NCBI GenBank assembly: GCA_964641225.1 | Contig: CAZXKC010000002.1 | Coordinates: 52,893-116,892 of the forward strand | Direction of reading: 5' to 3' | DNA: 64,000 bases | Source: an uncultured Candidatus Saccharibacteria bacterium | Lineage (GTDB): Bacteria; Patescibacteriota; Minisyncoccia; UBA6257; 1-14-0-10-44-23 | Position numbers and translations under genes: made by a program | Notes under the pieces: generated by a model | Seen by the model: only the letters and a program-made list of their open reading frames with translations | Told to the model about the DNA's origin: nothing | Databases searched by the model: none | Shown here: positions 10,951 through 39,500 of the stretch, one piece after another | How the letters are laid out: each line of letters opens with the position of its first letter | Numbering within the stretch: position 1 is the first letter of the stretch

Positions 10951-11595
10951 ACTCCTAGTATAGCGCACGCACGTTATCGGTGAGCGCCTTCGTCCAGGAT
11001 GTTCGAACCTTTTGTCTCGATCCGAAGAACAGAGAGGCAATCGAAATGATGAGGGGCATGTTGAGGAGGATGGGCGGCAAGAGTGATCACTGCAAAGGCG
11101 CCTGAATGGCTGAGGGTCTCACAGAGTGAGACCCTTGTGGCGCGACGGGCATTGCCCGCGCAAACTTGCCACGCGGGCCTCGGCGGTTGTCACCCTAGTA
11201 ACTTGCCCATGCAGTACCACGGGCTGTCGAGTGACGGTTGCCGGTGCCAGACCTACTGTATCATTGTCATTCTCGCGCCGCAAACATCAGGGCTGTAGTG
11301 CCCTGTCTCTCTTCCGCAATCGTCTGAACCATGGCACTCTGTAGCGATGCAACTAACCGATGAGGACATCCGCAAGTTCCGGCAGATATGGAAAGAGGAG
11401 TTCAATGAAGAGATTACAGAAGGCTACACACGCCAGCGCGCAATAGCCGTACTCGAAATGATGGTGTTGATGCTTAAGCACCAGGCGAAACAGAGTTCAC
11501 CAAGTTCACAGAGTTCAGGAAGCGAGGAGTGATGTGGGTTGAAGCGATGAACTTCGGTGGTGAACACTGGACTTGAAGTTCACCAGAAACTCGAA

Positions 11596-15016: not shown

Positions 15017-15220
15017 AAGTGATAAGGTCCCGTATGATATTCGTAGTCAAATAAGTGACCATGAAGGCAAAAGGGATGTAAGAATTAGCTAAATAATTAG
15101 AAAACTATCTTCATTAGTATACGCACTATATCAGAAAATGGCAATTGACAAATTTCTAGTATATAGTGATATTGGTTGCGGTTCTTTGATTTCTTAATTC
15201 AACCAAAAGGGAGGTGGTTT

Positions 15221-20653: not shown

Positions 20654-21574
20654 ATGGCCAAGATTGATGAGCTTCTTCAGGATTATTTGGATTATTTGAC
20701 TGTCGAGAAGGGGCGCTCGCCAAAGACGAGGCGTAATTACGAGCATTATTTGCGCGTATTTTTTAAGGATGCCGATATCAAGAAAGAAACAGATATTACC
20801 GAGCGCGTAGTTAAATCATTTCGTGTGCGACTTTCAGAGCAGCAGAGCGGTCGTGGTGGCGTGATGAAAAAGGTAACGCAGAATTATTACGTGATCGCGC
20901 TTCGCAGTTTTTTGAAATATCTTGCCAAGCATGATCATAACGTGATTGCCGCCGACAAGATTGAACTACCGAAAATTGCACAGCGCCAGATTGATATTCC
21001 TGAATATAAAGAGTTTGATCGACTGATGAGCGCCCCAGAGGGCGAAAGCCTGCGCGCACTGCGCGATCGCGCCATCTTAGAGACACTATTTTCAACAGGC
21101 CTGCGTGTTTCTGAGTTATGTAACCTGAGTCGCTACCTTGATCTGAGTCGCGGAGAGATAACCGTACGCGGTAAGGGTGAAAAACTGCGCGTGGTGTTTT
21201 TTTCAGATAGCTGTAAGGCAACGATAAAAAAGTATTTAGATGCGCGCGGCGATGCTATGGAGTGGATGTTTGTCAGTCTCACACGGGTTCCGAAGAAATC
21301 GCAGAAGCCACCGAAGGTGATCGGCAAAATAACTCCGCGTTCTGTGCAAAACATGGTGAATTTTTATTCCCGCAAAGCCGGGCTTTCTCAGAAGGTGACG
21401 CCACACAAGCTTCGTCACTTATTTGCCACTGACTTACTGATTAACGGCGCCGACCTGCGTTCCGTTCAAGAACTGCTTGGTCACAGCAATATTTCTACCA
21501 CGCAAATTTATACGCACTTAACTAATAAACAATTAGGGGACGTGCATAAGAAATTCCATGGAAAGCGGACGTAG
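20654..21574 (+). CDS. xerC: XerC/XerD-family tyrosine recombinase
   Basis: N-terminal SAM-like domain (LQDYLDYLTVEKGRSPKTRRNYEHYLRVFF). C-terminal catalytic motifs HKLRHLFATDLL…LLGHSNISTTQIYTHL. Confidence 0.85.
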   Translation: MAKIDELLQDYLDYLTVEKGRSPKTRRNYEHYLRVFFKDADIKKETDITERVVKSFRVRLSEQQSGRGGVMKKVTQNYYVIALRSFLKYLAKHDHNVIAADKIELPKIAQRQIDIPEYKEFDRLMSAPEGESLRALRDRAILETLFSTGLRVSELCNLSRYLDLSRGEITVRGKGEKLRVVFFSDSCKATIKKYLDARGDAMEWMFVSLTRVPKKSQKPPKVIGKITPRSVQNMVNFYSRKAGLSQKVTPHKLRHLFATDLLINGADLRSVQELLGHSNISTTQIYTHLTNKQLGDVHKKFHGKRT

Positions 21575-21610: not shown

Positions 21611-21692
21611 GCTCTCGTGGTGAAATTGGCAGACACGCCACCCTTAGGAGGTGGTGCCGCAAGGCATGGAGGTTCAAGTCCTCCCGAGAGCA
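21611..21692 (+). tRNA. tRNA-Leu (TAG)
   Basis: Acceptor GCTCTCG/CGAGAGC, anticodon stem CCACC/GGTGG with loop CTTAGGA, long variable arm TGCCGCAAGGCA, T-arm GGAGG-TTCAAGT-CCTCC, discriminator A. Confidence 0.85.
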
Positions 21693-21703
21693 CCCTGAAA
21701 ATC

Positions 21704-21743: not shown

Positions 21744-22091
21744 CTAACCTTGTCCGAGCAACTGCGCAACTACGAACGATACTCCTTGTGCCAAGAAGGC
21801 GACGGCGATGGCAACTACTGCGTAGATGATGCGCTGGTGAGCTGCTTTAACTTTTTCTTCGTCACCACCAGAGGTCAGGTAAGCGAAGGCGGCCCAGATG
21901 ATCATCAGTACTGCGACAACGAGTAAAATAGTGAACAACCAGCGGATGACGGTGTCAAAAATACCAAGAACTCCTTCAAAGCTACGAATGCCTGGAGGCG
22001 GAGTCGTTGTCGGGATATCGATAGCCATAGCAGCTAGAGGCATAAAGGCTACGAATGCAATTGCGCTGATCGCGAGAATCTTTTTCTTCAT
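21744..22091 (-). CDS. TrbC/VirB2-like (T4SS-pilin-like) small secreted protein, a singleton copy
   Basis: Signal peptide followed by two TM segments around a short SGG..E loop (…IRWLFTILLVVAVLMIIWAAFAYLTSGGDEEKVKAAHQRIIYAVVAIAVAFL…). The same motif recurs in the 24583-27867 array. Confidence 0.6.
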   Translation of the reverse strand: MKKKILAISAIAFVAFMPLAAMAIDIPTTTPPPGIRSFEGVLGIFDTVIRWLFTILLVVAVLMIIWAAFAYLTSGGDEEKVKAAHQRIIYAVVAIAVAFLAQGVSFVVAQLLGQG

Positions 22092-22464: not shown

Positions 22465-22713
22465 ATAATTCGTCAGTCGTGTACCTTGAAAACCTAGGTA
22501 TAGAGCCGTTTTTAGCGGTTTTATGCAATACCTTGCTCTAATTCGTCACGAAATGGGAATCGTATAGCTGATAATGCATAGTCAGCTATACAACTCCCGT
22601 TTCGTGTTAAGTTTGGTTCCTTGTGGAGCCAGCACGGATGGGGCAAGGGCTCTAGTGGCCCGACGCGGGCAAAAGAATGGCCCGCGTTAAGCGGCCATTG
22701 GAGGAGAAAGAAC

Positions 22714-23772
22714 ATGAGTGCAGGACACGGTAGTGGCGGTGGCAAGGGGATGGCGATCTTCGGACTGGTCATCCTGACCACCGTAATCGCCGTGCTCTTC
22801 ATGGTCTTGCCGGAGGAATACCAGCTGCTGATCGGCGCCATCGCGCTTGTCGCAGGGCTCGGACTCACGGCAGTCATCTTCTGTGCGAAGAGCGTTGTCT
22901 TCAACAAGGCAGGGCATGCTCTGATCCAGGAGGAGTTTGGTGATCCCGTAGGAGACGTGAAGAGAAGCCCGGGACCCGCATGGGTTCCGGCATATCGCCG
23001 ACCGATCGTGGTGCACGAGGAGATCAAGACCCTCGATACTACGATCAGGATCGTCACCAGCGGCAGCGCTCAGCCGATTCCCGGACTCTCGATGCTCGCT
23101 AGTCTGCCCGAAGGGCTCGCGATCGAGATTGATGGCTTCATCCGCTATCGGGATTCGGCCACGGTGCTCGACGCCATGGGCAATCCTCAGGTTCTCAGAG
23201 TCAGCAGGCAGAACAGGGAGACTGCGATTCGGCACGCCAGCGAATCGGTGGGCACTATGATCGGCTCCGGATATACGATGGGGGACATCCTCCTGCATCT
23301 TCCGGAGGTCGACAAGATCCACAAGTGCCGACTCGAGCTCTCTCGCATGCCCAATGACGACTCGAGGTTCCTGGATCACTACGGCGTTCGTCGTCCTGTG
23401 CCTCACAAGCTGCCGGACTTCTTCCGTCGTAACCACGCCCGAGTTGACGAGTGGATCGAGCGGTGGGCGGCCACTGAGTCTTCCAGGACCGAAAAGGATG
23501 TCGCGGTCGAGATCATCGAGACCGGAATCCGCAGGGTCAGGCTGCCTCCCCAGATCGACGCTCTCAATCAGCGTAGGGTCTACGGCATCGTCTTCGGCGA
23601 GCTCGTCAAGTCTTACGTTGACGACTACGGAATGACGCCTGCTGAGGCCAAGATCAGCGCTGCTCAAGTGCTGGGGTTCGATGCCCAGACGCGCGAGGTT
23701 CGTTCAACCGGAACTGGCAGGGGTCGTAACATCAACGTGATCGATGGCGGTCACGGCGGTTCGCACCACTAG
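22714..23772 (+). CDS. Hypothetical membrane protein on a GC-rich island; two N-terminal TM helices then a ~280-aa soluble domain, possibly SPFH/band-7-like
   Basis: RBS ggaggagaaagaacATG. Sequence runs MSAGHGSGGGKGMAIFGLVILTTVIAVLFMV…LLIGAIALVAGLGLTAVIF…. GC content is about 60%. The SPFH assignment is tentative. Confidence 0.5.
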   Translation: MSAGHGSGGGKGMAIFGLVILTTVIAVLFMVLPEEYQLLIGAIALVAGLGLTAVIFCAKSVVFNKAGHALIQEEFGDPVGDVKRSPGPAWVPAYRRPIVVHEEIKTLDTTIRIVTSGSAQPIPGLSMLASLPEGLAIEIDGFIRYRDSATVLDAMGNPQVLRVSRQNRETAIRHASESVGTMIGSGYTMGDILLHLPEVDKIHKCRLELSRMPNDDSRFLDHYGVRRPVPHKLPDFFRRNHARVDEWIERWAATESSRTEKDVAVEIIETGIRRVRLPPQIDALNQRRVYGIVFGELVKSYVDDYGMTPAEAKISAAQVLGFDAQTREVRSTGTGRGRNINVIDGGHGGSHH

Positions 23773-23807: not shown

Positions 23808-24407
23808 ATGACTGAAGCACACGCGCCGCATGCTGAAGAAGAGCACGGCCACGACGCTGACGAACCCGTCTTCGAGACGGCTCCTACCTTCTGGGACGAG
23901 CAGAAGAGCTGGCTCGTGCCGGTCCTCGTGATTCTCATCACGCTGGCCTTCGTTGTTCCGATCGTCTTGCTCCTGAAGGCGCATGCGAAGGCGAAGCAGG
24001 AGGCACTCAAGCAGGTGCCCGCGGCCGTCCAGCCGCAGGCGACTCAGCAGTACGGCGTGCCGGTGGCTGCGCCACAGGTCGTCGAGATGCCCCAGGACGA
24101 GGTCTACCCGCGCGATATCGCCGGCGGCAAGACCTGGGAGAAGATCTACGGCGGCACCCGGGCGAAGGTCCGGCGGCCGGCCAACGGGTATGTCCAGTGG
24201 CAGGACGTGCTCATCAGTACAGACGGGAAGAGTTGGCAGAACTTCCCGGACGGTCGTAACAACTACGACCACACGCTCGCCGAGCAGTCCGGAGTCTTCG
24301 ATATCCGGGCCGTCGATGAAACGATTCCGTTCAATCGCGGAATCAGGGTGGTGATCGCCGACCATCCGCTGCCCGATCCTCCCGGTGCGGGAACGATCGT
24401 CAAGTAG
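23808..24407 (+). CDS. Hypothetical single-pass membrane protein on a GC-rich island
   Basis: RBS gaaaggaa. An acidic, His-rich N-terminus precedes a TM helix (WLVPVLVILITLAFVVPIVLLL) and a Q/P-rich extracellular part. It is co-oriented with the upstream gene at a 35-bp gap. Confidence 0.5.
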   Translation: MTEAHAPHAEEEHGHDADEPVFETAPTFWDEQKSWLVPVLVILITLAFVVPIVLLLKAHAKAKQEALKQVPAAVQPQATQQYGVPVAAPQVVEMPQDEVYPRDIAGGKTWEKIYGGTRAKVRRPANGYVQWQDVLISTDGKSWQNFPDGRNNYDHTLAEQSGVFDIRAVDETIPFNRGIRVVIADHPLPDPPGAGTIVK

Positions 24408-24513: not shown

Positions 24514-24535
24514 CTATTGGAGAGGGAAATAAAAC

Positions 24536-24562
24536 CGGGCGGCCTGAGTAGGCCGCCCGGAA
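24536..24562. terminator. Bidirectional GC hairpin (ccgggcggc…gccgcccgg family)
   Basis: ccgggcggcctgagtaggccgcccgg, with an A/T-rich flank on the minus side, downstream of the pilin-like operon. Confidence 0.5.
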
Positions 24563-24582: not shown

Positions 24583-25080
24583 TTAAAACTTGATATTTGG
24601 GTTGAGCTGAATGCTGCCGTACTTTGTGTTGACGTTGATGCTGGCGTTTACATTGCCATTCTGGTTTCCGTTAAGACCATTTTGGCCAACTGCGCTGCTG
24701 CCGTCGCTGACGAGCTGGTATACAACAAATACAATGCCTTTTGAAAGAAGAGCGACGGCAATTGCTACTGCGGCGTAAATGATCATCTTGTGGGCTGAAG
24801 CAACGGCCTCTTCTGCGCCTCCTGAGAACATGTATTTGTAGGCCGCAAAGATGATCCACATCACGGCGAGTACGAGCAGGAGGATAAACATCCAGTTGGC
24901 GATCGTAACGATCAGGCCCTGAATGCCGCTTAAGCCATCACCGCTTTGACCTAAGATTGTGTTTTGCGCGCAGGGGATCGGGCCGCTACAGTCTTGCGTA
25001 ATGTTTTGCTGCGCAAAGGCAACGACGGGCAACAAGAATGTTGCAAGAGAGGCCGCTACAGTTGTAATAAATGTTTTCAT
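24583..25080 (-). CDS. T4SS-pilin-like (TrbC/VirB2-like) protein, array member 5
   Basis: Signal peptide, then …IANWMFILLLVLAVMWIIFAAYKYMFSGGAEEAVASAHKMIIYAAVAIAVALL…, then an N/G-rich tail. Confidence 0.6.
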   Translation of the reverse strand: MKTFITTVAASLATFLLPVVAFAQQNITQDCSGPIPCAQNTILGQSGDGLSGIQGLIVTIANWMFILLLVLAVMWIIFAAYKYMFSGGAEEAVASAHKMIIYAAVAIAVALLSKGIVFVVYQLVSDGSSAVGQNGLNGNQNGNVNASINVNTKYGSIQLNPNIKF

Positions 25081-25092
25081 GCAGATGATAAA

Positions 25093-25821
25093 TTAATTTA
25101 TATTACGGCCATCGAGTGGCCGAATCTCGCCTCCGCTGACACACATAACTGGTCTGCGGCCGTTGGAGCACTGCTGAACCTCGGCGGTGTGTCCTGGAAT
25201 ACTGTAAGGTACAAGTACCGACTGCTTGCCGTCGCTTAAGGTTATATTACTCAAGCTGCCAAAAGTTTGTCCATCCATAATCACAGCAGGGTATTTGGTT
25301 ACGTAACTACCCGAGCTATCTTTGTCGTTGCTGCAGTAGTCGACGAAGACGTCGGTCAGTGTCGGGTGAGGTACTTTAAAGAAGCCGACACCTGGATTTG
25401 CGCAGATTCCCGGAGTAGGGCCTAGCGCAGAGGTTGCCGGCGTTGAGGTTGCCGAGGTCGAGGTGGTGCCACCGCTTCCGCCAAGCACAAAGCGCTGTAC
25501 CGTAAAGACGATACCTTTAGCGAGTGTGCCGACGGCAATAGCGACGGCGGCGTACATCAGCATCTTGTGCGCAGTGCTGACACCTTCTTCGCTGCCACCA
25601 CTAAACAAGTATTTGTAGGCTGCGTAGACGATAAAGGCAACGGCCAGAACAATTAAAAGAGTGAAAAACCAGTTGATGACGGTGTTGATGAGCGCAAGTA
25701 CAGAATCTTCTCCTTGCGGCAGACTGTCTGGTAGTTGTTGGACGCCGCTGACTTGAGCCATTGCTAAGGCAGGAGAGAGAGTCAGGAGCGTAAGTGTCAG
25801 AGCAGTAAAAAGTTTTCGCAT
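25093..25821 (-). CDS. T4SS-pilin-like protein with a Cys-containing C-terminal extension, array member 4
   Basis: …VINWFFTLLIVLAVAFIVYAAYKYLFSGGSEEGVSTAHKMLMYAAVAIAVGTL… plus a ~120-aa tail. Confidence 0.6.
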   Translation of the reverse strand: MRKLFTALTLTLLTLSPALAMAQVSGVQQLPDSLPQGEDSVLALINTVINWFFTLLIVLAVAFIVYAAYKYLFSGGSEEGVSTAHKMLMYAAVAIAVGTLAKGIVFTVQRFVLGGSGGTTSTSATSTPATSALGPTPGICANPGVGFFKVPHPTLTDVFVDYCSNDKDSSGSYVTKYPAVIMDGQTFGSLSNITLSDGKQSVLVPYSIPGHTAEVQQCSNGRRPVMCVSGGEIRPLDGRNIN

Positions 25822-25825
25822 ATGA

Positions 25826-26230
25826 TTACACCTTTGTTACAAAGTTTTGTACGAGCGAAACTAATCCGCGCGAAAGGGTTGCAACAGCGACTGCGATAGC
25901 GCCGTACATAATCATTTTGTGCGCTGTGCCGACATTTTCGCCGCCACCGGCTGTTAGGTAAATAAAGGCGGCGTAGATAAACATGATGATCGCTACCGAG
26001 ATAAAGATGGTGAACATCCAGTTGATGATTTTGTTGATCAAGCCAATTACTTTTTCTTCAGTATCAAGTACGCCTTCGGTGTTGCCGGCACCGTTTGGTG
26101 GTACCTGCTGCACATTGGTCGGGCTACCGTTTGGTGGTACCTGCGTTGTTTGCGCTGTGGCAATAAATGGTGAAGCGATCAGAATACCTGCAGAAAGACC
26201 GGCTGCTAAAAGAACAAGAGTTTTTTTCAT
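25826..26230 (-). CDS. T4SS-pilin-like protein, array member 3
   Basis: …IINWMFTIFISVAIIMFIYAAFIYLTAGGGENVGTAHKMIMYGAIAVAVATL…. Confidence 0.6.
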   Translation of the reverse strand: MKKTLVLLAAGLSAGILIASPFIATAQTTQVPPNGSPTNVQQVPPNGAGNTEGVLDTEEKVIGLINKIINWMFTIFISVAIIMFIYAAFIYLTAGGGENVGTAHKMIMYGAIAVAVATLSRGLVSLVQNFVTKV

Positions 26231-26236
26231 ACTCTC

Positions 26237-26620
26237 TTATAGGGATGGAGTTAATAATTTTTGAACGATTGCAACAATGCCTTGAGCCGCCAGGATGATT
26301 ACGTATCCGATAACAGTATACACAATTGTGTTACGTCCGGTCGCAAACTTTTCCGGATTGCCGGCGGCAAACACCATTTGAAATGCACCAAAGATAACGA
26401 TCAGCGGAACAAGAATCGTGATGATTTTAACGGCTTGTGTAAAGAAATTTTTTAACAGACCTGGTAGGGTTGCATTTGCTCCTAGGGGATTACAGAGCGT
26501 AATCTCGCCATGAGGGCCCGGCGGGCAGCTTGTGTCGTCGGCTGCAAAGGAAACAGAGCCTACGCTTATAATACTAAGCGTGAGTAAGCCTGCAGCAATC
26601 GCTAATAATGCCTTATTCAT
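26237..26620 (-). CDS. T4SS-pilin-like protein, divergent array member 2
   Basis: A signal peptide and two C-terminal TM segments (…ITILVPLIVIFGAFQMVFAAGNPEKF…VIGYVIILAAQGI…). Confidence 0.5.
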   Translation of the reverse strand: MNKALLAIAAGLLTLSIISVGSVSFAADDTSCPPGPHGEITLCNPLGANATLPGLLKNFFTQAVKIITILVPLIVIFGAFQMVFAAGNPEKFATGRNTIVYTVIGYVIILAAQGIVAIVQKLLTPSL

Positions 26621-26628
26621 TGCACTTA

Positions 26629-27867
26629 TTATAACCCACTTGGTCGGAAGACGGTAGCAACCCCCAGTGCATCAAAGATAAATTTAATAACGAGGTAGGA
26701 GACGGAGACATAGACCAAGCCCAAGATTGCTGTTTTGGCAACGGTGATGCCTTGGCTTACTTTCTCGCTGCTGCCGCCGGAGGTCATCACTTTAAAACCA
26801 GCGTAACCGATCATCAGGAAGATAATCGGCAAAATAATAACCGTCAGCCACTTGATGATGTTTTTAATCAGTTGCACGAATGCGTTCAGGCCGCAGGCGC
26901 CTGGTGTGTTTGGGGGAAGGACGGGGTCACACTGAGGGACTATGCCGCCGCCGGAATTTGTGTTGCTGCCGACTACGCCCGTATTAAGTTCTCTCAGGGC
27001 AACTTTAATACCATCTATACACCCACTTGTGTAGCTATTATTGTAGTCAATTTGTTTGTAGCCCTCGTTAATCGGAAGTTTATATTTAGCTTGTGGTGCT
27101 GTTGTGCAGTTTATGCCTAGTGAGTCGCCCTTAGTAATGACTTCGCGGTATCCATCTACGCAGCCAACTCTGTATCCCAGTGCCATTACGTCTGTGTCAG
27201 AGCCAACGAGTGTATTACAATTTCTGATTTTTGAAGAAATTGCCTGCATTTCTGCAGTAAAAGGAATGGAAACAAGCGGTATGCTGTTTCTGTAGTCTTC
27301 GTATGACCTGTTGTATCCTGCAAGACAGCCGCGGTTAGCGATGACATCAGTGTTATTGCAGATCGAGAAGGAGTCGGGTTTTTTGTCGGTATTAACCTGG
27401 TCGATATAGCCGTCAATGCAGCCTTGATTAAATCTGTTCTGCTCTGCGCTGCCAATAAGTGGGTTCGAGCTTGCATATTCACTGGCTTTATTGGTGAGCT
27501 GCTGGCAAATCCGAGCAACATCATCAAGCGTCATCTTTCGGTCTGCAAGTTTTGAGCTGGCAGTGACCGTATACAGCTCAGAGCCTTTCGCAAAGCCGTC
27601 ATAGCAGCCGTTTACCCAGTCAGTGGCATTTGCTCCTGAAGGAGCGGCAATTCGTACACAAAAAGAGTCCTTATCAGTCGCTCCGGTAATCGCGCGAGTG
27701 CAGCCGCTGGTGTATCCCTGTTGATAGCTTTGAGGGTTGCTGCTATTTGGAGTAGGGCAGGTTGCTGCGTCTGTTATCGCGGGAGTGTGTAACACTGCTG
27801 ATGCAAGAAACATTGCTGCAATGCTTGTGCGTACAATATATCTAGCTATTTTTTGAATTCGACGCAT
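26629..27867 (-). CDS. Large Cys-rich secreted protein with a C-terminal T4SS-pilin-like module, array member 1
   Basis: A ~330-aa Cys-rich extracellular region with repeated C..GY / GC.DGY motifs is followed by …IIKWLTVIILPIIFLMIGYAGFKVMTSGGSSEKVSQGITVAKTAILGLVYV…. Confidence 0.55.
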   Translation of the reverse strand: MRRIQKIARYIVRTSIAAMFLASAVLHTPAITDAATCPTPNSSNPQSYQQGYTSGCTRAITGATDKDSFCVRIAAPSGANATDWVNGCYDGFAKGSELYTVTASSKLADRKMTLDDVARICQQLTNKASEYASSNPLIGSAEQNRFNQGCIDGYIDQVNTDKKPDSFSICNNTDVIANRGCLAGYNRSYEDYRNSIPLVSIPFTAEMQAISSKIRNCNTLVGSDTDVMALGYRVGCVDGYREVITKGDSLGINCTTAPQAKYKLPINEGYKQIDYNNSYTSGCIDGIKVALRELNTGVVGSNTNSGGGIVPQCDPVLPPNTPGACGLNAFVQLIKNIIKWLTVIILPIIFLMIGYAGFKVMTSGGSSEKVSQGITVAKTAILGLVYVSVSYLVIKFIFDALGVATVFRPSGL

Positions 27868-27868
27868 A

Positions 27869-29182
27869 TTATTGCGCGGCTTTACGCTGCATAAGCGTGG
27901 TTATGTTTTCTTCCGCAAGTTTAAGCGCCTGCTCAATTGGCATCTGGGTTGCGTTGATCAGATCGATCATCTTGGTAAAGATGTAGTCAATGCTTGCGTC
28001 ATCAATTTTTGGCCAGCTCTGCGCAGTGAGAGCCTGACGCACAAATACGCCGATTTGCGGGTCGTTAAGGTTTGGCGTGATTAGTTCTCGTAGCGCCGGT
28101 GGGCGGCTAACGGCATTAAGGTATTTTCCGTTTGCCGTCGGCTCGAGGGTTGAATTTAAAATAAATTGCCAGGCAAGATTTGGGTCGGCTGTTTTTGAGG
28201 AGACGGCCAAGCCCCAGTAATTAGCATAGCTGATTGATTTTTTTGCCTGCGAAAACTGAGGAATTGGGATAACGCTGAAGGTTAAAAATGGATTCTTAGC
28301 TTTAATTGAGGGGATTTGATAGGCATAGTTAAAAATCATAGCCACTTTTTCTTCAGTGAAGGCGTCGAGTGAGTAGTGCTGCGCGCTATCCCAGGTATAT
28401 TGCGGCAGACGAGGATTCGCAAAGTCAGTATAAAACTGCACAGAGGCGGCGCCATTGGTTGCAGTTGCGAAGGTGGCTCGTGTTATTTGCGGACTGACCA
28501 TTTGTACGCCAAGTTGTAGCATGATTGCATTAAGCAGATCAGTGGCTTCATTGATATTGTTTGAACTGCCGCCAATAGCCGCCGCGGCTTGAGTGATCCG
28601 GCCCAGATTATCAGTCTTGCGCAGCTGCGGGATCATGTTTAAGAACTGCTCCCAGGTTGTAGGTGGCTGAGCAATGCCTGCCGCATCAAACATTTTTTGG
28701 TTATAAAACAGCGACAGTGTATCGATATATAACGGCAGTGCGTATGTTTGCCCGCCGGTCGTAAAGTCTTGCTCTACAATAGAAGGAAAGGCCGCACGTA
28801 ATGTTTCAATTGGGAAGTCTTTAGTCGGAAGCGGGACAACTTTGTCGTTGTGTTTAAGCAGCCAGCTGTTTTTAAACATAAAGACGTCCGGACCACTTCC
28901 TGCAGCAAGCGCATTAATTAAATCTTGTTCGTAGGTCCGGTCATCTATTTTTCGGTAGGTAATTTTTACCTGTGGATTTTTGGCAATAAAGTCGGCTATC
29001 AGCGTGCTGTTAACGGCCTGTTCAGTATCAAATACTCCCCACACGGTTAGGTTGCCTTTGAGGGTGCTGATGTTCTGCGTACTGCGTAAGCCCGGAATAA
29101 CACCTGTAAAAAGTAAAATAACTACGAGCGCAATTAGGAGAACGCCCCCAATTAAGATGAGTTGAGTTTTAGAAAATTGCAT
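27869..29182 (-). CDS. Membrane-anchored extracellular solute-binding protein (SBP family-1-like), orphan
   Basis: N-terminal TM anchor, then a typical SBP_bac_1 start …LKGNLTVWGVFDTEQAVNSTLIADFIAKNPQVKITY…. Its stop overlaps the start of the gene downstream on the minus strand. No permease or ATPase gene is adjacent. Confidence 0.6.
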   Translation of the reverse strand: MQFSKTQLILIGGVLLIALVVILLFTGVIPGLRSTQNISTLKGNLTVWGVFDTEQAVNSTLIADFIAKNPQVKITYRKIDDRTYEQDLINALAAGSGPDVFMFKNSWLLKHNDKVVPLPTKDFPIETLRAAFPSIVEQDFTTGGQTYALPLYIDTLSLFYNQKMFDAAGIAQPPTTWEQFLNMIPQLRKTDNLGRITQAAAAIGGSSNNINEATDLLNAIMLQLGVQMVSPQITRATFATATNGAASVQFYTDFANPRLPQYTWDSAQHYSLDAFTEEKVAMIFNYAYQIPSIKAKNPFLTFSVIPIPQFSQAKKSISYANYWGLAVSSKTADPNLAWQFILNSTLEPTANGKYLNAVSRPPALRELITPNLNDPQIGVFVRQALTAQSWPKIDDASIDYIFTKMIDLINATQMPIEQALKLAEENITTLMQRKAAQ

Positions 29183-29321
29183 GAAAATTTACAAATAAAT
29201 TCTCACCCCATGACATAGCCCGCACGGGCTTATCTTTTCGGGGTAACTCAATTTATTGTAGCACAATCTCAGTTAGATAGGCTTCGCCATCTAACGGGAT
29301 GAACGGCAGTAATTCTTCTGC

Positions 29322-31796
29322 TCAGAAGCAGATAATTCCGATGACCTGGTCGCCCTTCTCAACATTCATGATGCGTACGCCTTGTGTTGCGCGCGAGGCC
29401 GTTCTAATCGAGGCGATTTCAGTGCGGATAACCTGGCCTTTTGCTGAAAGCGCAATTAATTCTTTTTCCGCCGATACAACGCGCGCATCCATAACCGGAC
29501 CGGTTTTTGTAGTCACTTCAGCCGTCTTAATACCTGATCCACCGCGGCTTTGCAGGCGATATTGTCCAAGTGCTGTTTGTTTCCCGTAGCCATTAGACAT
29601 AACTACGAGTAGACGATGATCTTTTGAGTCAGTTTTAGTGATCAAATTCATCGAACTGACAAAATCCTTTCCTTTGAGTTTGATGGCAGTAACACCCGAG
29701 GCGGTGCGACCCATTGCGCGAACTTGTTTTTCAGGGAAGCGAATAGACTGGCCGTCGTGCGTGGTGATAATTACTTCATCGCTGCCACCCGAAAGATTGA
29801 CCCATTTGAGTTCGTCTTCTTTGCGCAGGCCGATTGCGATAATGCCTGATTTACGGACGTTCTGGAAGTCAGCCAAGGCTGTTTTTTTGATCATGCCTTT
29901 GACTGTTGCCATCATCAAGAACTGATTTGCCAGATCTTTTTCTTTGACTGTATTCGGGTAGGTGATGATTGCATTAACGCGTTCCTCAAGCGGCATTTCT
30001 AAGAAGTTGTGAACAGGCTTGCCCTTGCTTTGGCGGCTAGCAGCAGGAAGTTCCCAAACCTTTGTTTGGAAGACGCGGCCGCGATCAGTGAAGAATAAGA
30101 TATTGTCGTGCGTGTGGGCAAAGGAAATGTGAGCGATAAAGTCGTCGTCGGCAACATCAGAGCCGATTAGGCCCTTGCCGCCGCGATTTTGTACTTTAAA
30201 GCTGCCTGGCGGAACGCGCTTAATATAGCCGCTCTGCGAAAGAGTAATGATTGTTTCTTCGTTGGCGATCAAGTCTTCTTCGGCAAAATCTTTGATGCCG
30301 CCGGCAACCAGCCGAGTGCGTCGTTCATCGCCAAAGCGCTCTTTAACCTCCTTAAGTTCAGTTTTAATCACCGTGAGAATTTTTGCCGCACTTTTGAGGA
30401 GCGATTCAAGGTCTTCAATGAGCGCTCGCTTTTCTTTGAGCTCGTTTTCGATTTTATAACGCTCGAGGCTAGCCAGCGTTGCCAGCTTGGTGTCCAAAAT
30501 TGCCGTTGCCTGTAAGTCGCTAAACTTAAACTGCTTCATCAAATTCGTGTGTGCCTCTTCGCGATTTTCTGCTTTGCGGATTAGCGCGATAATCTTGTCG
30601 ATATTTGAAAGCGCCTTTTCAAGACCTTCTAAAATATGTTCACGCTCTTTGGCTTTTTTCAGATCAAATTCTGCGCGGCGTTTAACGACGAGTTTGCGGT
30701 GTTCGATAAAGGCAACCAGCATGTCTTTAAGCGACATGACTTGAGGCTGTAGTCCGCCGTCGCCGAGGGCCACCATGTTCACTGCAAAGTTTTTCTGCAG
30801 ATCAGTGTACTCAAAGAGCTGGTTTAAGATTTTTTGCGGGTTGGCATCATTTTTTAATTCAATAACGATCGACATACCATGCTTGTCGCTCTCGTCGCGG
30901 ATGTCCCGCACGCCTTCAATTTTTTTGTCGGTGACCAGTTCAGCCATGCGCATCAGCAACTCTGATTTATTCACCTGATACGGAATCTCGGTGATTTCAA
31001 TGTCGTAGCCCTTGCCGCCTTTGCGTTCTTTGATTTCTGCCACGCCGCGCATAGTAATCGGACCCTTGCCGGTTGTGTAGGCTTGCAAAATGTCTTTTTT
31101 GTTGTAAATTACGCCGCCGGTCGGGAAGTCTGGGCCTTTTACGAATTCAACTAGTTCTTCCGTGGTTGCCTTTGGGTTATCGGCTAGATGCAGTGTCGCG
31201 TCTACGACCTCAGTCAAGTTGTGCGGCGGAATGTTTGTCGCCATACCAACGGCGATACCGGCTGTACCGTTGAGCAGCAGGCTTGGTAATTTCGTCGGCA
31301 AAAATTTTGGCTCCTGTTTCGTGCCCGAATAGTTTGGCGCCCAATCGACTGTTTCTTTATCGATGTCACCTAGGAGCGCCTCTGAGACACGCGCAAGTTT
31401 TGTTTCGGTGTAACGATATGCAGCCGCCTCATCGCCGTCGATAGAACCCCAGTTGCCCTGGCCAATACACAGCGGGTAGCGGAACGAGAAGTCTTGCACC
31501 ATGCGGACAATCGTCTGGTAAATCGAGGAGTCTCCGTGCGGGTGATATTTACCCATGACCTCACCGACGATGTCGGCTGATTTTCGAAATTTTGCATCAG
31601 CAGTTACCCCCGAGTCCCACATGCCCCAGAGAATACGGCGTTGCACCGGCTTTAATCCGTCGCGTACATCCGGAAGTGCACGGGCGACAATAACGCTCAT
31701 CGCATAATCTAAATACGATTCCTTGAGTTCCTCGGTAATCTCGCGCGGCTCTATGTCTTTGGGCTGCTTTGGTTTTGTTTCTTCTGTGTCGGCCAT
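29322..31796 (-). CDS. gyrA: DNA gyrase subunit A
   Basis: …[28 protein letters not shown]…[10 protein letters not shown] (active-site Tyr region). 824 aa. Confidence 0.9.
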
Positions 31797-31802
31797 ATTG
31801 GT

Positions 31803-32114
31803 TTATTGACTAGTTGAGGTGGTGGTCGTTGGCGTCAGTTCTAATGGTGGCTGCGAGGTTTTTTCTTTAAAGTAGTGAATCGTGTTGCTAATTCCATTTT
31901 TAAAATCCGAGAATCCTTGTTTGAAAGTGGTGCTAATCGAGGAGAACATCATGCTGCTACTTGATTCCTGCGGTGCTGCTACGCTCGAGGTAATATGTTT
32001 AATGCCTCCTATCCATATAATGAGTACGAAGACGCCTGATAGGGAGGATAAGATGATCAGCCAGCGCACCCGCGTTTTCCGATCAGCCTGTTGAATGGTA
32101 TCAAGTGAGAGCAT
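31803..32114 (-). CDS. Small membrane protein
   Basis: TM helix (WLIILSSLSGVFVLIIWIGGI), then an S/T-rich tail. Its stop lies 6 bp from the gyrA start. Confidence 0.45.
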   Translation of the reverse strand: MLSLDTIQQADRKTRVRWLIILSSLSGVFVLIIWIGGIKHITSSVAAPQESSSSMMFSSISTTFKQGFSDFKNGISNTIHYFKEKTSQPPLELTPTTTTSTSQ

Positions 32115-32119
32115 GGCTA

Positions 32120-32755
32120 TTAGAGTGTAAGAAGTGCAACCTGCATTTTTTCTCCGAGCTCCTTCTTTTTAATTGAAACTTTTTCTACCGGCTCGCTCTT
32201 GAGGCCAAGTTGCTTGAGAAAGTCCGCCGCATCATCGCTTTTTCGTTTTAGTCCGGCTACCTTAAAGAATGAGGGGATTACGAGTCGCGGATCAATTTGA
32301 CGTATTAATTTTGCCGCCGCCTCTTGGGTGATATATGGAGCGCCGCCGCCGGGCACAATTAAAATATCAATATCGCCAAGCTCTTCGAGAATCTCCGGAT
32401 CATTGAATTCTGCGAGATGACCAAGTAGTCCTACCGAAAGATCATCGGTTTTGATTTTAAATACGGAGCGCAGCATCTCTTTATCGCTGCCTCCTTTGAG
32501 CGGCCAGCCCGTAATTTGAATCCCTTTTACCTCGTATTCGCCCGGACCGGCGATTACAACAGCGCCATCGTCGTCGTGCGTCCCAACAGGCTTTTCGTCT
32601 TCCGGCGAAATCGGATTTAGCAGAGTCTTGAGGACAATATCTGTTTTAAAACGCGGCGCAGAAAGACCGGTGTAGTTTTCGATCGGATCGGTCGTGATCG
32701 TTACGCCATTTTCAACAATTTTAAAGCACCCCTCGCCGTACCAGTTTATGGTCAT
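32120..32755 (-). CDS. UPF0173/YtkL-like metallo-beta-lactamase-fold protein with an apparently degenerate HxHxDH motif
   Basis: N-terminus WYGEGCFKIVENGVTITTDP and C-terminal …DILIVPGGGAPYITQEAAAKLIRQIDPRLVIPSFF… fit this fold. THDDDG stands where HxHxDH is expected. Confidence 0.45.
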   Translation of the reverse strand: MTINWYGEGCFKIVENGVTITTDPIENYTGLSAPRFKTDIVLKTLLNPISPEDEKPVGTHDDDGAVVIAGPGEYEVKGIQITGWPLKGGSDKEMLRSVFKIKTDDLSVGLLGHLAEFNDPEILEELGDIDILIVPGGGAPYITQEAAAKLIRQIDPRLVIPSFFKVAGLKRKSDDAADFLKQLGLKSEPVEKVSIKKKELGEKMQVALLTL

Positions 32756-36530: not shown

Positions 36531-39500
36531 TTAGGCAATTTCTTTTACCTGATCGCAGACCAGTGAGGTCTCGCCATTCCTAAAGTTGAGTTTGCCGATA
36601 CATACAATAATTGCACCCTCTTTAAAGCAGGTTTGATTCTTCGTAAATATTTCTGAGAAGACGACCACCTCAACCGTACCTGAGTGGTCCTCGAGTTTTG
36701 CAAAACACATCGGCTTACCGGTTTTGGTAATAATCGATTTTACGGAATTGATCATGCCGCAGACGCGATAATTTTTAACCGTTGAGCGCTCAACGAGCAT
36801 GTCTTTAATCTTCGTTGGTTTCATTGTTTCAATCTGAGCCGCCGCTACGGTCAGCGGGTGATTGGAGACATAGAGTCCGAGTAATTCTTTTTCCCAGGCT
36901 AATTTTTCTTTATTCGTTGCCTCGGTTGCCGGTTTTAGTTGCAGCGCCTTTGACGCAGCTTTTGAGGTAAACGCATTACCGAATAAGTCGGCGGTTTGCG
37001 GAGCGGCGATTTTACGTGCTGCTTGGGCATATTTTGTGATGTCGTCGATATTAGCGAGCAGGGTATTGCGATCTATCGTAAATCCATCGAGCGCTCCGCA
37101 TTTAATCAGCGACTCAAGCGATTTTTTATTTAAATCTTTGTGTTGTACGCGCGTGAGTAATTCATTGAAGGTTGCAAACTCACCGCCGCGGCTGCGTTCC
37201 TCGATAATTGCTTTAACGATATTGGTGCCAACATTTTTAACCGCCTCAAGACCAAAGCGGACGTTGATTCCTTCTGGTGCAAATGCGGAGGAGCTTTTGT
37301 TGATATCCGGAGGTAAGACCTGCACGCCAGATTTTTTCGCCTCGCTGATCAAGAAAGAGATGCGTTCAATGTCTGAACTTTCTGAATTGAGCAGTGCGGT
37401 TATAAATTCCGTCGGATAATGCGTCTTTAAGTAGGCCGTTCGGTAGGCGATCATCGCGTAACAGGCGGCGTGAGAGCGGTTAAAACCGTAGCGGGCAAAC
37501 GGCGGGAAGAGTTCCCAGATAATGCGGGCGGTGCGTTCTGGAATTCCATTTTTTACCAAGCCGGCAATTAATTTTGCCTCTTGCTCATCAAGCAGTTTTT
37601 TAATTTTTTTACCGATCGCTTTTCGGAGCGTATCAGCCTCTGCGAGCGAGTAGCCGGCCAAATCTGAGGCAATCCGCATCATCTGCTCTTGGTAAATACC
37701 AATGCCGTAGGTTTTTTTCATGATCGGCTCGAGCTTTGGGTGTTGATAGGTTACCTGCTCTTTGCCGTATTTACGATTAATATACGATGGAATCAGTTCC
37801 ATTGGGCCTGGGCGGTAGAGCGCCACCATCGCGATAATGTCCTCGAGCTCGGTTGGCTTTAACTCCTTTAAATAGCGACGCATGCCGCCGGATTCTAACT
37901 GGAATACACCCACGGTGTCGGCGCGCTGGAACAGCTCAAAGGTTGCCTTGTCGTTAAGCGGCAACTTGCTCATATCAATCAGATCTCCGGTTTTTTCTTG
38001 AACGAGTCGGATCGTGTTTTCGATGATCGTCAGGTTTTTGAGTCCCAAGATATCCATTTTGAGCAGACCAAGATCCTCGATTGCATGCATTTCAAATTGA
38101 GTCAGGGTCACGTTTTCATCTTGCGGCGCATGCTGAAGCGGTACGCGTAGTGGTAGCGGTTGTGCGGCAATCACGGTACCACAGGCGTGGACTGAGGCAT
38201 GGCGTGCAACGCCCTCGAGCTTTCGAGCCGCATCGATTAACTTTTTTGCGCGCTCATCGCTTTTATAAATCTGCGCAAGTTCATCGACTTCGGCGAGTGC
38301 CTCATCTAAATCTTTGTTAAACGGAATTAATTTTGCCAGGCGATCGCAAAATGCTAATTCAATATCGAGTGCGCGGCCGACGTCACGAATCGAAGCGCGC
38401 GCCGCCATAGTTCCAAACGTAATAATATGTGCGACACGATCTTTGCCGTATTTTTCCTCCAGATAACTAAAGACCTCGTCACGGCGGACGTCGGTGATAT
38501 CTACGTCGATATCTGGCATTTGAATACGCTCCGGGTTAAGGAAGCGCTCAAAGAGCAGTTCGTAGTGAATCGGGTCAAGATCGGTGATGCGTAATATGTA
38601 AGAAATAATTGATCCGGCGGCAGAACCACGGCCAGGGCCGACAACGACGCCGCGGTCTTTTGCCCAGTTAATAAAATCTTGGACGATCAAAAAGTAATCG
38701 GCAAAACCGGTTTTTTCGATAATACCCAGCTCATATTCAATACGGGTTTTCGTAATCTCATCGACAACCGGATAGCGGTCAGGCGTGCGTTCTTTAACGA
38801 GCTGACGAAGATATGCCTTAGAATCACTGCCGTCCGGTGTATCAAATTTTGGCAGCAGAATTTTTCCCAGCTCTAGTTTAAAGTTACAGGCCTCGGCGAT
38901 TTTTGCGGTGTTTTGAATTGATTCGGGCAGATCAGAAAACGTGTATTCCATCTGCAGGCCGCTCATCACTGAAAAATCATCGGTGAGCGTGAATTTTTTC
39001 GGATCATTTACTTTTTTGCCGGTCTGAATTGCCAGCAAAATATCGTGCACGTCTTTATCTTCGCTGGTTAAATAATGACTGTCTTGAGTGGCAACCAGGG
39101 GAGCGCCGGTCTTTTTAGAAAGTGCGACGAGGTGCGGATTAATCTTTTCAATATCCGGAATTTTCGGGTGGCGACCGATTTCAATATAATAATTTTCTGC
39201 GCCAAAAATATCCTGATACTCGCGGATAACTTTTTCAGCCTGGACGAGATCGTTTTTGAGTGTGGCCTGTGCTAGCTCGCCGCCCAAACAGGCCGAGGTG
39301 GCTATAAGCCCTTCGTGGTGCTTTCGCAGCATGGCTTTGTCCATACGCGGCTTATAATAGAAGCCGTGCAGCCAGCTTTCGGTAACTAATTGCAGTAGAT
39401 TTTTCCAGCCGGCTTCATTTTTGACTAATAAGATGAGGTGATAGTATCGTTCCTCGCCGTTGGTGCCTGTACTGGTTTTGTCTGTGTGATCGCCCGGCGC

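Follow-up and report, generated by a model that had tools for sequence, protein, structure and literature searches.

A chromosomal Patescibacteria operon encoding a membrane-anchored solute-binding protein and five VirB2-like T4SS pilins

Organization of the operon

The window, by which we mean the whole 64-kb stretch of DNA that was analyzed, contains a chromosomal Patescibacteria (CPR) operon in which five VirB2-like "T4SS pilin" genes come after the gene for a membrane-anchored solute-binding protein (SBP). The six genes lie on the minus strand from 29182 to 24583, with intergenic gaps of 1, 8, 6, 4, and 12 nt. An earlier reading of the same DNA, made from the letters only (the sequence-only reading), had described six minus-strand genes with gaps of 1 to 12 nt, and all of these ORFs were found. 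Its title had the operon ending with the SBP gene, which is in fact the first (5′) gene, as the body of that reading also has it. A further pilin gene stands by itself, and two convergent plus-strand genes lie between it and the operon. The features are as follows.

29183..29321, minus strand: intergenic region from the gyrA stop to the SBP start, candidate operon promoter region (direct sequence reading)
27869..29182, minus strand: gene 1, CUT1-type (oligosaccharide) SBP, 437 aa (Pfam, AF2, and Foldseek)
26629..27867, minus strand: gene 2, class A pilin fusion, 412 aa, PF18895 27.3 bits over residues 329-396
26237..26620, minus strand: gene 3, class B pilin, 127 aa, PF18895 35.9 bits, signature NPL...GAFQMVFAAGNPEKFATGRNTIVYTVIGY
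25826..26230, minus strand: gene 4, class C pilin, 134 aa, PF18895 26.3 bits, paralog-profile E 8.6e-36
25093..25821, minus strand: gene 5, class C pilin, 242 aa, PF18895 31.6 bits over residues 39-105
24583..25080, minus strand: gene 6, class C pilin, 165 aa, PF18895 26.5 bits, paralog-profile E 2.8e-38
24535..24560, minus strand: intrinsic terminator, 11-bp stem with 10 G-C pairs, 4-nt loop, TTTTATTT tail
21744..22091, minus strand: lone class C pilin, 115 aa, PF18895 38.4 bits (highest score among the six)

The region upstream of the SBP gene carries an extended -10-like element, TGCTACAAT. Because a consensus scan of 29183..29321 gave no full sigma-70 match, the operon promoter is putative. 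At the other end, the strong terminator is located 22 nt past the last operon stop codon and marks the 3′ end of the unit.

The solute-binding protein

The product of gene 1 contains no cysteine and is anchored by a single N-terminal transmembrane helix, at the end of which lies a conserved G[VI]IPGLR motif. It matches the Pfam families SBP_bac_1 (E 1e-26; 95.1 bits, cut-off 26) and SBP_bac_8 (E 1.6e-24), and by sequence it matches sugar SBPs in the PDB (5ci5 and 1eu8, near 1e-15). The AF2 model has a pLDDT of 92.6, and its best Foldseek matches are oligosaccharide SBPs with TM scores of 0.7-0.84 and E 2e-25. Both an HMM family match and the two-lobe SBP fold were therefore found, in agreement with the earlier description of the first gene as SBP-family-1-like. 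In the subfamily alignment, mean column identity is 58% and 42 columns are invariant, 10 of which hold Trp, Tyr, or Phe; from these invariant positions the SBP is predicted to bind a sugar ligand. Conservation is far higher in the SBP than in the pilins of the operon.

A shared PF18895 module in six proteins

All six module-bearing proteins match Pfam PF18895 (T4SS_pilin, the CPR VirB2-like family). The gathering cut-off of this family is 26.6 bits, with four copies above it and two just below (26.3 and 26.5 bits); the latter two score E 1e-35 to 1e-38 against the paralog profile. This profile, built from the module copies, retrieved exactly six ORFs of the window (E 1e-40 to 2.5e-29), the next ORF having E = 0.32. 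The T4SS-pilin identity proposed in the sequence-only reading thus holds, and the module that it saw in five operon products is real by the profile, although the consensus it quoted (NWxF...SGG.E..AHK..YA.VAIAV) fits only four copies. The gene at 21744..22091, which it had counted as a seventh copy, is instead a seventh gene: the modules number six, five in the operon and the lone one. The copies form five tandem genes plus one nearby, at 21-50% identity, in keeping with the published range for PF18895 arrays.

By hydropathy, each copy consists of a signal-like hydrophobic N-terminal segment and two long hydrophobic helices flanking a short polar turn; signal-peptide cleavage sites of the AxA type were assigned by eye. 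No prepilin peptidase motif is present in the PF18895 proteins. The Cys-rich extensions occur at the termini only (N or C), the ends predicted to lie outside. The Cys-rich ectodomain and the Cys-containing tail described in the sequence-only reading are confirmed, with 14 Cys in the 412-aa protein and 4 in the 242-aa protein. The 242-aa product of gene 5 has a C-terminal tail of about 120 aa that is predicted to be extracellular, is Ser/Thr-rich, and contains the 4 Cys, and the tail of gene 6 is Asn/Gly-rich.

In the product of gene 2, a signal peptide is followed by an ectodomain of about 290 aa (nt 26893-27765), a conserved Cys loop, QCDPVLPPNTPGAC, and, at the C-terminus, the PF18895 hairpin of two helices (nt 26632-26892). 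The ectodomain holds the 14 Cys and five GCxDG[YFI]-type repeats (GCLAGY in one). In the AlphaFold model of the 412-aa protein, the module is a hairpin of helices 324-362 and 367-406 joined by a 4-residue turn (pLDDT 74-87), and the ectodomain has a pLDDT below 50. At related locus L015, the ortholog of gene 2 shares 31% identity with it over 409 aa (E 1e-46) and likewise has 14 Cys. This ectodomain is common to about 10 representative clusters, and in class A the Cys loop is positioned before helix 1.

As to other families, the window proteins fall below the threshold of TrbC/VirB2 (PF04956), the best being gene 3 with E 0.19 and 12.4 bits (cut-off 27.9), and a profile of 34 modules found no solved T4SS pilin among PDB sequences. 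Three relatives (P0142, P0190, and P0203) match both PF18895 and PF04956 and so give an indirect link; among them, P0142 (1e-14) and P0203 (8e-4) are relatives of the class A module. TrbC flags also occur on neighbors in L014, L016, and L018, and the module proteins have weak matches to the Mycoplasma ICE pilin-like family NF045849. A placement in an unrelated family such as holins, named beforehand as the result that would speak against pilins, was not seen: the module proteins match no holin family in Pfam, NCBIfam, or PHROGs, and their sole PHROG matches are to "secreted protein" and "unknown function" at E about 2e-4.

Three pilin classes in a fixed order

In an NJ tree of the modules from eight loci, the sequences cluster by position in the operon and not by genome, forming classes A, B, and C with bootstraps of 73, 85, and 97, respectively, of which the value for class A is moderate. 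Identity is 33-38% within a class across genomes, as compared with 22-24% between classes in one genome. The four class C copies of the window (25826-26230, 25093-25821, 24583-25080, and 21744-22091) are 39-50% mutually identical, whereas the 412-aa and 127-aa proteins have only 21-32% identity to them and bear signatures of their own. The class B clade unites gene 3 with the second pilin gene of every related locus. Gene order is fixed, with A directly after the SBP gene, followed by B and then by one to four copies of C. Judged from these sequences, the three classes are old paralog lineages.

The sequence-only reading had described a diversified repertoire. This fits class C, the copies of which look like a lineage-specific amplification, but not A and B, which are distinct old orthologous classes with a kept position; for the most part, then, the array is a fixed, heteromeric set and not a collection of interchangeable variants. 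Another account would be a pool of interchangeable pilins that arose by recent duplication and serve to vary antigens or host range, an idea proposed for the VirB2 paralogs of Bartonella and Anaplasma and raised for Patescibacteria arrays (PMC12102498); for this locus it is very improbable. Class C, with four copies here and one to four among loci, has the kind of variable number that such a pool would show, and divergence in the ectodomains of class A and the tails of class C is so fast that an indexed homolog search returns only the protein itself. Against this, A and B are old, and in all eight loci each has one copy and keeps its position. Even within class C, several copies can be paired one-to-one with orthologs in relatives: gene 4 (win.3) is a sub-ortholog of L015.3, gene 6 (win.5) of L015.5, and win.6, the lone pilin at 21744..22091, corresponds to the equally placed L012.5 and L015.6, with 74% module identity to L012.5. 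The lone-copy layout itself recurs in L012 and L016.

Linkage of the SBP gene to the pilin array

The SBP gene directly precedes the A-B-C genes in 10 of 10 related loci (L002, L003, L004, and L012-L018), in which SBP identity is 37% or more and two to six PF18895 genes follow. The SBP-A-B-C unit is kept across distant Patescibacteria whose flanking genes differ. This specific and invariant linkage makes a functional connection likely. We also asked what else is encoded nearby. No VirB4, VirB6, VirD4, ABC permease, or ABC ATPase was present among the scanned ORFs of the window, as the sequence-only reading had noted; the scan covered all ORFs of at least 190 aa outside the operon (minus antisense ORFs overlapping longer genes and gyrA) and 13 smaller ones. 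None of these genes was present within ±8-10 kb in the seven relatives L012-L018 either.

An SBP with a full SBP_bac_1 fold and many invariant aromatic residues of the kind typical of sugar clefts could be an ordinary component of an oligosaccharide ABC importer whose permease and ATPase are encoded elsewhere, its adjacency to the pilins stemming from inherited order or expression timing with no mechanistic link. Membrane-anchored SBPs are normal in monoderms, which also suits such a role. Moreover, the wider neighborhood (MBL-fold gene, gyrA, and Xer integrase) is conserved in most relatives, so gene order is stable in this lineage. We nevertheless consider an ordinary importer unlikely. The SBP-pilin pair persists where the surroundings differ, as in L004, with a methyltransferase upstream and NusA downstream, and in L013, with an inverted gyrA. 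The gap between the SBP and class A genes is 0-1 nt not only in the window but also in L016, L017, and L018. In addition, the two BPD_transp_1 permeases and the ATPase of a CUT1 system are absent from the scanned ORFs of the 64-kb window and from the Pfam gene tables of L012-L018; no permease-sized membrane ORF is apparent beside the SBP gene in the ORF lists of L002-L004, where the pilins come directly after the SBP; and the more distant CPR SBP relatives L005 and L006 likewise have no permease neighbors.

With no T4SS ATPase or channel gene near the array, the connection of these pilins to a T4SS comes from family membership and from other lineages. To our knowledge and within the literature examined, no filament built of PF18895 proteins has been observed in any Patescibacterium. 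One could suppose that the PF18895 proteins are not filament subunits at all, but small membrane parts of a new SBP-dependent, T4SS-independent complex for uptake or signaling. Besides the separation from T4SS genes in this lineage, the fixed A-B-C layout with an SBP resembles multi-subunit transporters, no solved pilin was found by sequence, and there are weak compositional matches to the small TRAP subunit DctQ (E 0.02-0.18). However, these DctQ matches fall well short of the threshold and are of the sort that hydrophobic bias produces, PF18895 proteins lie inside the VirB4/VirB6 clusters of Saccharimonadia and are essential there, and some members match TrbC/VirB2. Large extracellular additions at both termini also suit a displayed filament better than a channel. 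Taken with this evidence, a non-filament complex seems very improbable.

Proposed function

We consider it probable that the operon provides both the subunits of a VirB2-like (PF18895) filament at the cell surface and a receptor dedicated to oligosaccharide binding. Most likely, the pilins form a heteromeric set in which C is the major subunit and A and B are minor ones; the receptor would be co-expressed with this set. Once exported by Sec and freed of their signal peptides, the hairpins would reside in the membrane with both ends outside, from where a T4SS of the VirB4/VirB6 type, encoded elsewhere in the genome, may extract and polymerize them by analogy with TrbC/VirB2 pilins. The major role would fall to class C, the amplified and most uniform of the three, whereas A and B would be present in few copies as initiators or at the tip; these putative roles are drawn from copy number and conservation only. 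The 14-Cys ectodomain of class A and the two class C tails would then be disulfide-stabilized host-contact surfaces on the exterior of the filament. The spacing of 0-1 nt that is often seen between the SBP and class A genes would allow their translation to be coupled. The ligand of the SBP is most likely an oligosaccharide from the host, bound at the cell surface, and the protein could act in host recognition or in nutrient capture at the contact site made by the filament. Such a predicted role is in line with the earlier suggestion that it may be a receptor or adhesin rather than part of a transporter.

Comparison with known systems

Pilin arrays as such are known, 441 VirB2-like arrays having been published for Patescibacteria. 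They are widespread, with a mutual identity of about 25% on average and 54% at most (PMC12102498), one is essential in Southlakia (PMC10633639), and a pilus acting as an uptake conduit has already been proposed (PMC12857230). The present array resembles SEML1_0014-0019 of Southlakia epibionticum ML1 and the "Sec-secreted array" of Nanosynbacter lyticus TM7x in its PF18895 family, chromosomal location, and ultra-small monoderm host. Published arrays consist of 2-11 tandem small proteins of low identity with a signal peptide and two helices, comparable to the 21-50% identity found here. The model arrays, however, sit inside a VirB4/VirB6 cluster, whereas here gyrA and an SBP gene precede the array and no T4SS gene is nearby. 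In the literature on Patescibacteria arrays that we examined, we did not find an SBP partner, a fixed A-B-C order, or a 290-aa Cys-rich pilin ectodomain; the invariant SBP partner and the fixed three-class gene order are thus apparently unreported within that literature.

The module proteins share with the TrbC/VirB2/TraA pilins of diderm T4SSs (PF04956) a signal peptide, two hydrophobic helices, a short loop, and termini predicted outside. Unlike those pilins, they belong to a monoderm host, score below the PF04956 threshold, and match no solved pilin. No VirB5-type tip protein, as in diderm T4SSs, was noted here. Likewise, the SBP resembles CUT1 SBPs (Lmo0181, 5f7v; Thermotoga, 5ci5; the Thermococcus litoralis trehalose/maltose-binding protein, 1eu8; and CbpB, 7x0k) in fold and Pfam families, but is only 16-22% identical to them, has no adjoining permease or ATPase, is invariably the first gene of a pilin operon, and carries G[VI]IPGLR after its anchor.

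Binding proteins tied to T4SSs have precedents in ChvE, the sugar-binding protein of Agrobacterium that acts on VirA, and PrgZ, the pheromone-binding protein of pCF10, which are orphan or dual-use binders feeding signals to T4SS regulons. Both are periplasmic or surface proteins with no permease of their own in the operon; ChvE is encoded apart from pilin genes, and PrgZ is a family-5 peptide binder. Unlike in those systems, there is no evidence here of a sensor kinase or regulator partner.

By analogy and not homology, the array also recalls the major and minor pilin sets of type IV pili, with their old non-interchangeable classes, conserved order, and one abundant class. Minor subunits of type IV pili can carry large adhesive domains, to which the class A ectodomain may be comparable. 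The type IV pilus differs from the PF18895 set in its fold and assembly machine. Separately, positions 9223-11040 of the same window encode a pilin with N_methyl and Laminin_G_3 domains.

Operon Organization

Six minus-strand ORFs occupy positions 29182 to 24583, exactly where a sequence-only reading of the window had placed them. Consecutive genes are separated by gaps of 1, 8, 6, 4, and 12 nt, and the last stop codon is followed by a terminator with an 11-bp stem, containing 10 G-C pairs, and a T-rich tail. On the basis of these gaps and the terminator, the operon extends from after gyrA, which was recognized by its sequence and orthologous position, to the end of the terminator.

Features of the operon and its boundaries
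29322-31796, minus strand, gyrA, after which the operon begins
27869-29182, minus strand, solute-binding protein (SBP) gene
26629-27867, minus strand, first pilin gene, encoding a 412-aa protein
26237-26620, minus strand, second pilin gene
25826-26230, minus strand, third pilin gene
25093-25821, minus strand, fourth pilin gene
24583-25080, minus strand, fifth pilin gene
24535-24560, strong intrinsic terminator, 22 nt past the last stop codon of the operon
21744-22091, minus strand, lone pilin gene outside the operon

The cluster resembles one transcription unit, in which an anchored SBP of the oligosaccharide type is followed by three ordered classes of PF18895 hairpin proteins. A profile of the module shared by the pilins picked out exactly six ORFs across the window (E = 1e-40 to 2.5e-29); the next-best window ORF had E = 0.32. 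Five copies thus belong to the operon, and one stands alone. The solitary copy, previously counted as a seventh, does exist but is the sixth module.

Family Assignment and Topology of the Pilins

All six module proteins matched PF18895 (T4SS_pilin), which bears out their initial assignment as T4SS pilins. Four of the six copies exceeded the gathering score (26.6 bits), the other two falling slightly short of it, at 26.3 and 26.5 bits. Against TrbC/VirB2 (PF04956; best E = 0.19) and the Mycoplasma ICE pilin-like family NF045849, the matches of these proteins stayed below threshold, and a profile built from 34 modules reached no pilin among the solved T4SS pilins, returning noise only. Among the relatives retrieved by protein search, P0142 matched both PF18895 and PF04956 (1e-14), and neighbors flagged by PF04956 are also present in three related loci (L014, L016, and L018). 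Because relatives match both families, the pilin family is tied, indirectly, to the VirB2 superfamily. A holin-like identity, which had been named as one example of an unrelated family, found zero matches in Pfam, NCBIfam, and PHROGs, and a holin or phage origin of these genes was rejected as being without support in the family searches.

Every copy begins with a signal-like N-terminal segment, followed by two long hydrophobic helices that flank a short polar turn. In the 412-aa protein, the module was modeled by AlphaFold as a confident hairpin (pLDDT 74-87). Membrane hairpins of this kind could also join the SBP in a complex unrelated to a pilus, an explanation to which we give very little credence.

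The relative P0142 is itself unusual, since its 606 aa contain seven PF18895 stretches in one predicted protein. Either it is a poly-pilin, or a gene-calling or frameshift error has joined several array genes.

The Solute-Binding Protein

The product of the first operon gene matched SBP_bac_1/SBP_bac_8 (E = 1e-26), carries a single N-terminal anchor helix, and contains no cysteine. Its closest sequences are the sugar SBPs 5ci5 and 1eu8. The structural neighbors of its AF2 model (pLDDT 92.6) are all oligosaccharide-binding CUT1 proteins (TM 0.7-0.84 at 16-22% identity), the ligands of which include cycloalternan and manno-, cello-, malto-, and sophoro-oligosaccharides. At E ≤ 1e-20, 865 homologs were found, and every named one came from Patescibacteria. 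The subfamily alignment has a mean column identity of 58% and 42 invariant columns, ten Trp/Tyr/Phe among them, and is far more constrained than the pilins. In addition, a near-invariant G[VI]IPGLR motif closes the anchor helix and precedes a variable linker (residues 1-35, 30 homologs). This degree of conservation exceeds the need of a plain membrane anchor and suggests a recognition or interaction site. The constraint on the subfamily, including the anchor motif, argues for a conserved ligand or partner of the SBP rather than a variable adhesin surface.

A fold shared with CUT1 proteins would also be expected of an ordinary importer component whose partners are encoded elsewhere. The window was scanned for such partners in all ORFs of ≥190 aa outside the operon and in 13 smaller ones, gyrA and antisense ORFs overlapping longer genes being excluded. 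No ABC permease or ABC ATPase, and no VirB4, VirB6, or VirD4, was found among the scanned ORFs, so that their absence, as noted from the sequence alone, holds for the window. In view of this absence and of the gene order described below, we regard an importer role as unlikely.

Conservation of the SBP-Pilin Linkage

Ten related loci from other genomes, with SBP identities of 37-59%, were obtained by a genome scan (L002-L004) or by exact look-ups (L012-L018). In all ten, the SBP gene is followed directly by two to six PF18895 genes; in the window, L016, L017, and L018, 0-1 nt separates the SBP from the first pilin. The wider order in most loci is an MBL-fold gene, a small gene, gyrA, the SBP, the pilins, a convergent gene pair, and a Xer integrase. 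The SBP-pilin unit stays intact despite altered flanks, as in L004, with a methyltransferase on its upstream and NusA on its downstream side, and in L013, where gyrA is inverted. More distant SBP relatives (26-29% identity; L005, from Roizmanbacteria, and L006) adjoin neither pilins nor permeases, and were for this reason discarded as a positive control for linkage to a permease. Judged from gene order, the linkage between SBP and pilins is specific and old.

Upstream of the operon, positions 29322-32755 (minus strand) encode an MBL-fold hydrolase (Lactamase_B_3), a small membrane protein of ~100-140 aa, and gyrA, leading to the SBP. This order is kept in most relatives (L003 and L012-L018), gyrA being inverted relative to the SBP only in L013.

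Three Classes of Pilin

In a neighbor-joining tree of 34 modules from eight loci, grouping follows gene position rather than genome, and three classes can be recognized.

Pilin classes, their position in the array, and their signatures
Class A, first pilin gene, C[DEN]PxLPP...C loop immediately ahead of helix 1 (bootstrap 73 of 100)
Class B, second pilin gene, NPL...AG[DN]PEKF..G..TI.Y..IGY (bootstrap 85 of 100)
Class C, third gene onward and the lone copy, NWMF...SGG.EE..AHK, the motif quoted in the sequence-only reading (bootstrap 97 of 100)

Members of the same class are 33-38% identical across genomes, whereas different classes within one genome are 22-24% identical. Five loci (L003, L013, L014, L017, and L018) have exactly one gene per class. 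The window has four class C copies, a number that might suggest a pool of interchangeable variants, and then for class C alone; for three of these copies, L015 or L012 contains a one-to-one ortholog, and we consider such a pool highly improbable. The tree, the within-class identity, and the one-to-one orthologs indicate instead that the array is mainly a fixed heteromeric set, with amplification restricted to class C.

The class A proteins of two more distant loci (L003 11489-11932 and L004 2727-3155) have a CxxC-containing cluster in place of the CDPxLPP...C loop and a C-terminal cysteine at the end; their disulfides may be arranged differently from those of other class A members.

Terminal Extensions of the Pilins

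The 412-aa protein is a class A pilin in which ~290 added residues separate the signal peptide from the Cys loop. This ectodomain contains 14 cysteines, arranged as seven evenly spaced pairs, and five repeats of the GCxDG[YFI] type, one of which is GCLAGY. Queried with the ectodomain alone or with all 412 residues, the indexed homolog search returned only the self-match, whereas an exhaustive HMMER search returned 2,040 relatives. Most of these are class A pilins of 100-200 aa that align to residues ~300-412. The ectodomain is common to about ten representatives, found only through this exhaustive search, among them the L015 ortholog (31% identity, E = 1e-46), which likewise has 14 cysteines. 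Other relatives, of 370-817 aa, have a C-terminal module and unrelated N-terminal regions that lack a Pfam match. As the module sits behind differing N-terminal regions, class A looks like a platform that displays differing extracellular domains. A single-sequence AF2 model of the ectodomain gave no usable fold (pLDDT < 50 across residues 21-325).

Two class C copies carry C-terminal tails, with 4 cysteines in 25093-25821 and an Asn/Gly-rich composition in 24583-25080. Extensions are thus confined to both termini, the ends placed outside the cell by the predicted topology. In F and T pili, both termini of VirB2 lie on the pilus surface, and by analogy the terminal extensions fit this arrangement.

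Relation to Known Arrays and Proposed Mechanism

This kind of feature is already known from published Patescibacteria arrays, and it had been correctly recognized from the sequence alone. Quiñonero-Coronel et al. (2025; PMC12102498) described 441 arrays of 2-11 VirB2-like genes (PF18895/PF04956) in 383 Patescibacteria assemblies, with a mean pilin identity of about 25% and a maximum of 54%; a pilin gene was close to virB4 in 1135 of 1948 assemblies. By Tn-seq, Wang et al. (2023; PMC10633639) found the six-pilin series SEML1_0014-0019, located within the T4SS cluster, to be essential in Southlakia epibionticum. TM7x carries the same kind of array (McLean et al., 2020; PMC7427843), and a 2025 review speculates that the T4SS pilus is a possible conduit for uptake from the host (PMC12857230). 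A solute-binding partner is unmentioned in the texts and searched supplements of these four publications. Three points were not found in the searchable literature and are added here: a conserved SBP partner, the order A-B-C, and a class A pilin that bears an ectodomain.

The picture that we think probable is a T4SS-polymerized set of A, B, and C pilins with a co-expressed SBP that recognizes oligosaccharides. The hairpins would be exported by Sec, processed, and kept in the membrane with both ends outside, and a T4SS encoded elsewhere in the genome would polymerize them. Class C would form the shaft, and classes A and B would be present in few copies, as initiator or tip subunits. Contact with the host would be made by the class A ectodomain and the class C tails. 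The SBP would be co-expressed with, and possibly translationally coupled to, class A, and would recognize or capture a host-derived oligosaccharide at the contact site. In a stronger proposal, the SBP works together with the VirB2-like filament and is no bystander, SBP, A, B, and C being one conserved module with which a T4SS-type pilus and a sugar-binding receptor jointly recognize or take up host glycans. We consider this quite unlikely; if true, it would represent a Patescibacteria-specific, pilus-coupled route of nutrient acquisition or host sensing without an adjacent ABC permease. Should the link be no more than co-expression, the locus would still be a well-defined but unremarkable case of a gene array already known.

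The locus offers two testable handles on the role of the Patescibacteria T4SS and of its essential pilin arrays. First, the array is not a collection of random variants but an ordered A-B-C set, from which a separate structural role is predicted for each class. Second, throughout a large Paceibacteria-type lineage, a strongly conserved SBP of the oligosaccharide type, without nearby transporter genes, stands at the head of the array. This suggests one particular ligand, and one particular protein that could take part in host recognition or nutrient capture.

Genomic Context

The window is ordinary chromosomal DNA of a Patescibacteria-type organism, encoding GyrA, ThrRS, DnaE, SMC, RNase Y, RNase III, iPGM, a PBP, a Mur ligase, MraW, NusB, L10, and five tRNAs. 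Its placement in Patescibacteria (Paceibacteria/Parcubacteria-like) is based on how the nearest SBP homologs and loci are named. Several features adjoin the lone pilin or lie elsewhere in the window.

Further features of the window
20654-21574, plus strand, Xer-type tyrosine recombinase (integrase)
21611-21694, plus strand, tRNA-Leu(TAG)
22621-23772 and 23808-24407, plus strand, convergent gene pair
9223-11040, minus strand, type IV pilin-like protein with an N_methyl motif and a Laminin_G_3 domain
3038-4552, minus strand, protein with T2SS-T3SS_pil_N and peptidoglycan-binding domains
39835-41247, plus strand, and 52195-53838, minus strand, candidate surface proteins with PKD and He_PIG/Big_9 Ig-like domains
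15176-16372, plus strand, 398-aa protein with several helix-turn-helix modules
36531-39719, DnaE

The integrase and tRNA-Leu next to the lone pilin, with a GC-richer patch at 22-26 kb, give the region the look of a mobile island border. A mobile island was rejected because RmuC, the integrase, the lone pilin, the convergent pair, the array, the SBP, and gyrA recur in this order in L012, L015, and L016; the apparent border is conserved chromosome.

The lone pilin is separated from the operon by the convergent pair, which sits in a patch with a GC content of 0.54-0.55 versus about 0.48. Each product has an N-terminal TM segment and matches no family, and long antisense ORFs overlap both genes. 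Related loci have a pair matching in size, order, and orientation at the same place, some members of which match Band_7. Orthology with these Band_7-like pairs was rejected, as BLAST gave no significant similarity, and the equivalence is positional and architectural only.

To judge from the domains of 9223-11040 and 3038-4552, the window also encodes an unrelated second pilus system, one subunit of which is of the lectin type. The helix-turn-helix protein matches MerR, HTH_17, HTH_23, IclR, and other HTH families. Finally, the L015 DnaE (1-117, the gene running off the locus) is 1,867 aa long, with intein and LAGLIDADG domains, while that of the window has 1,062 aa and is intein-free.
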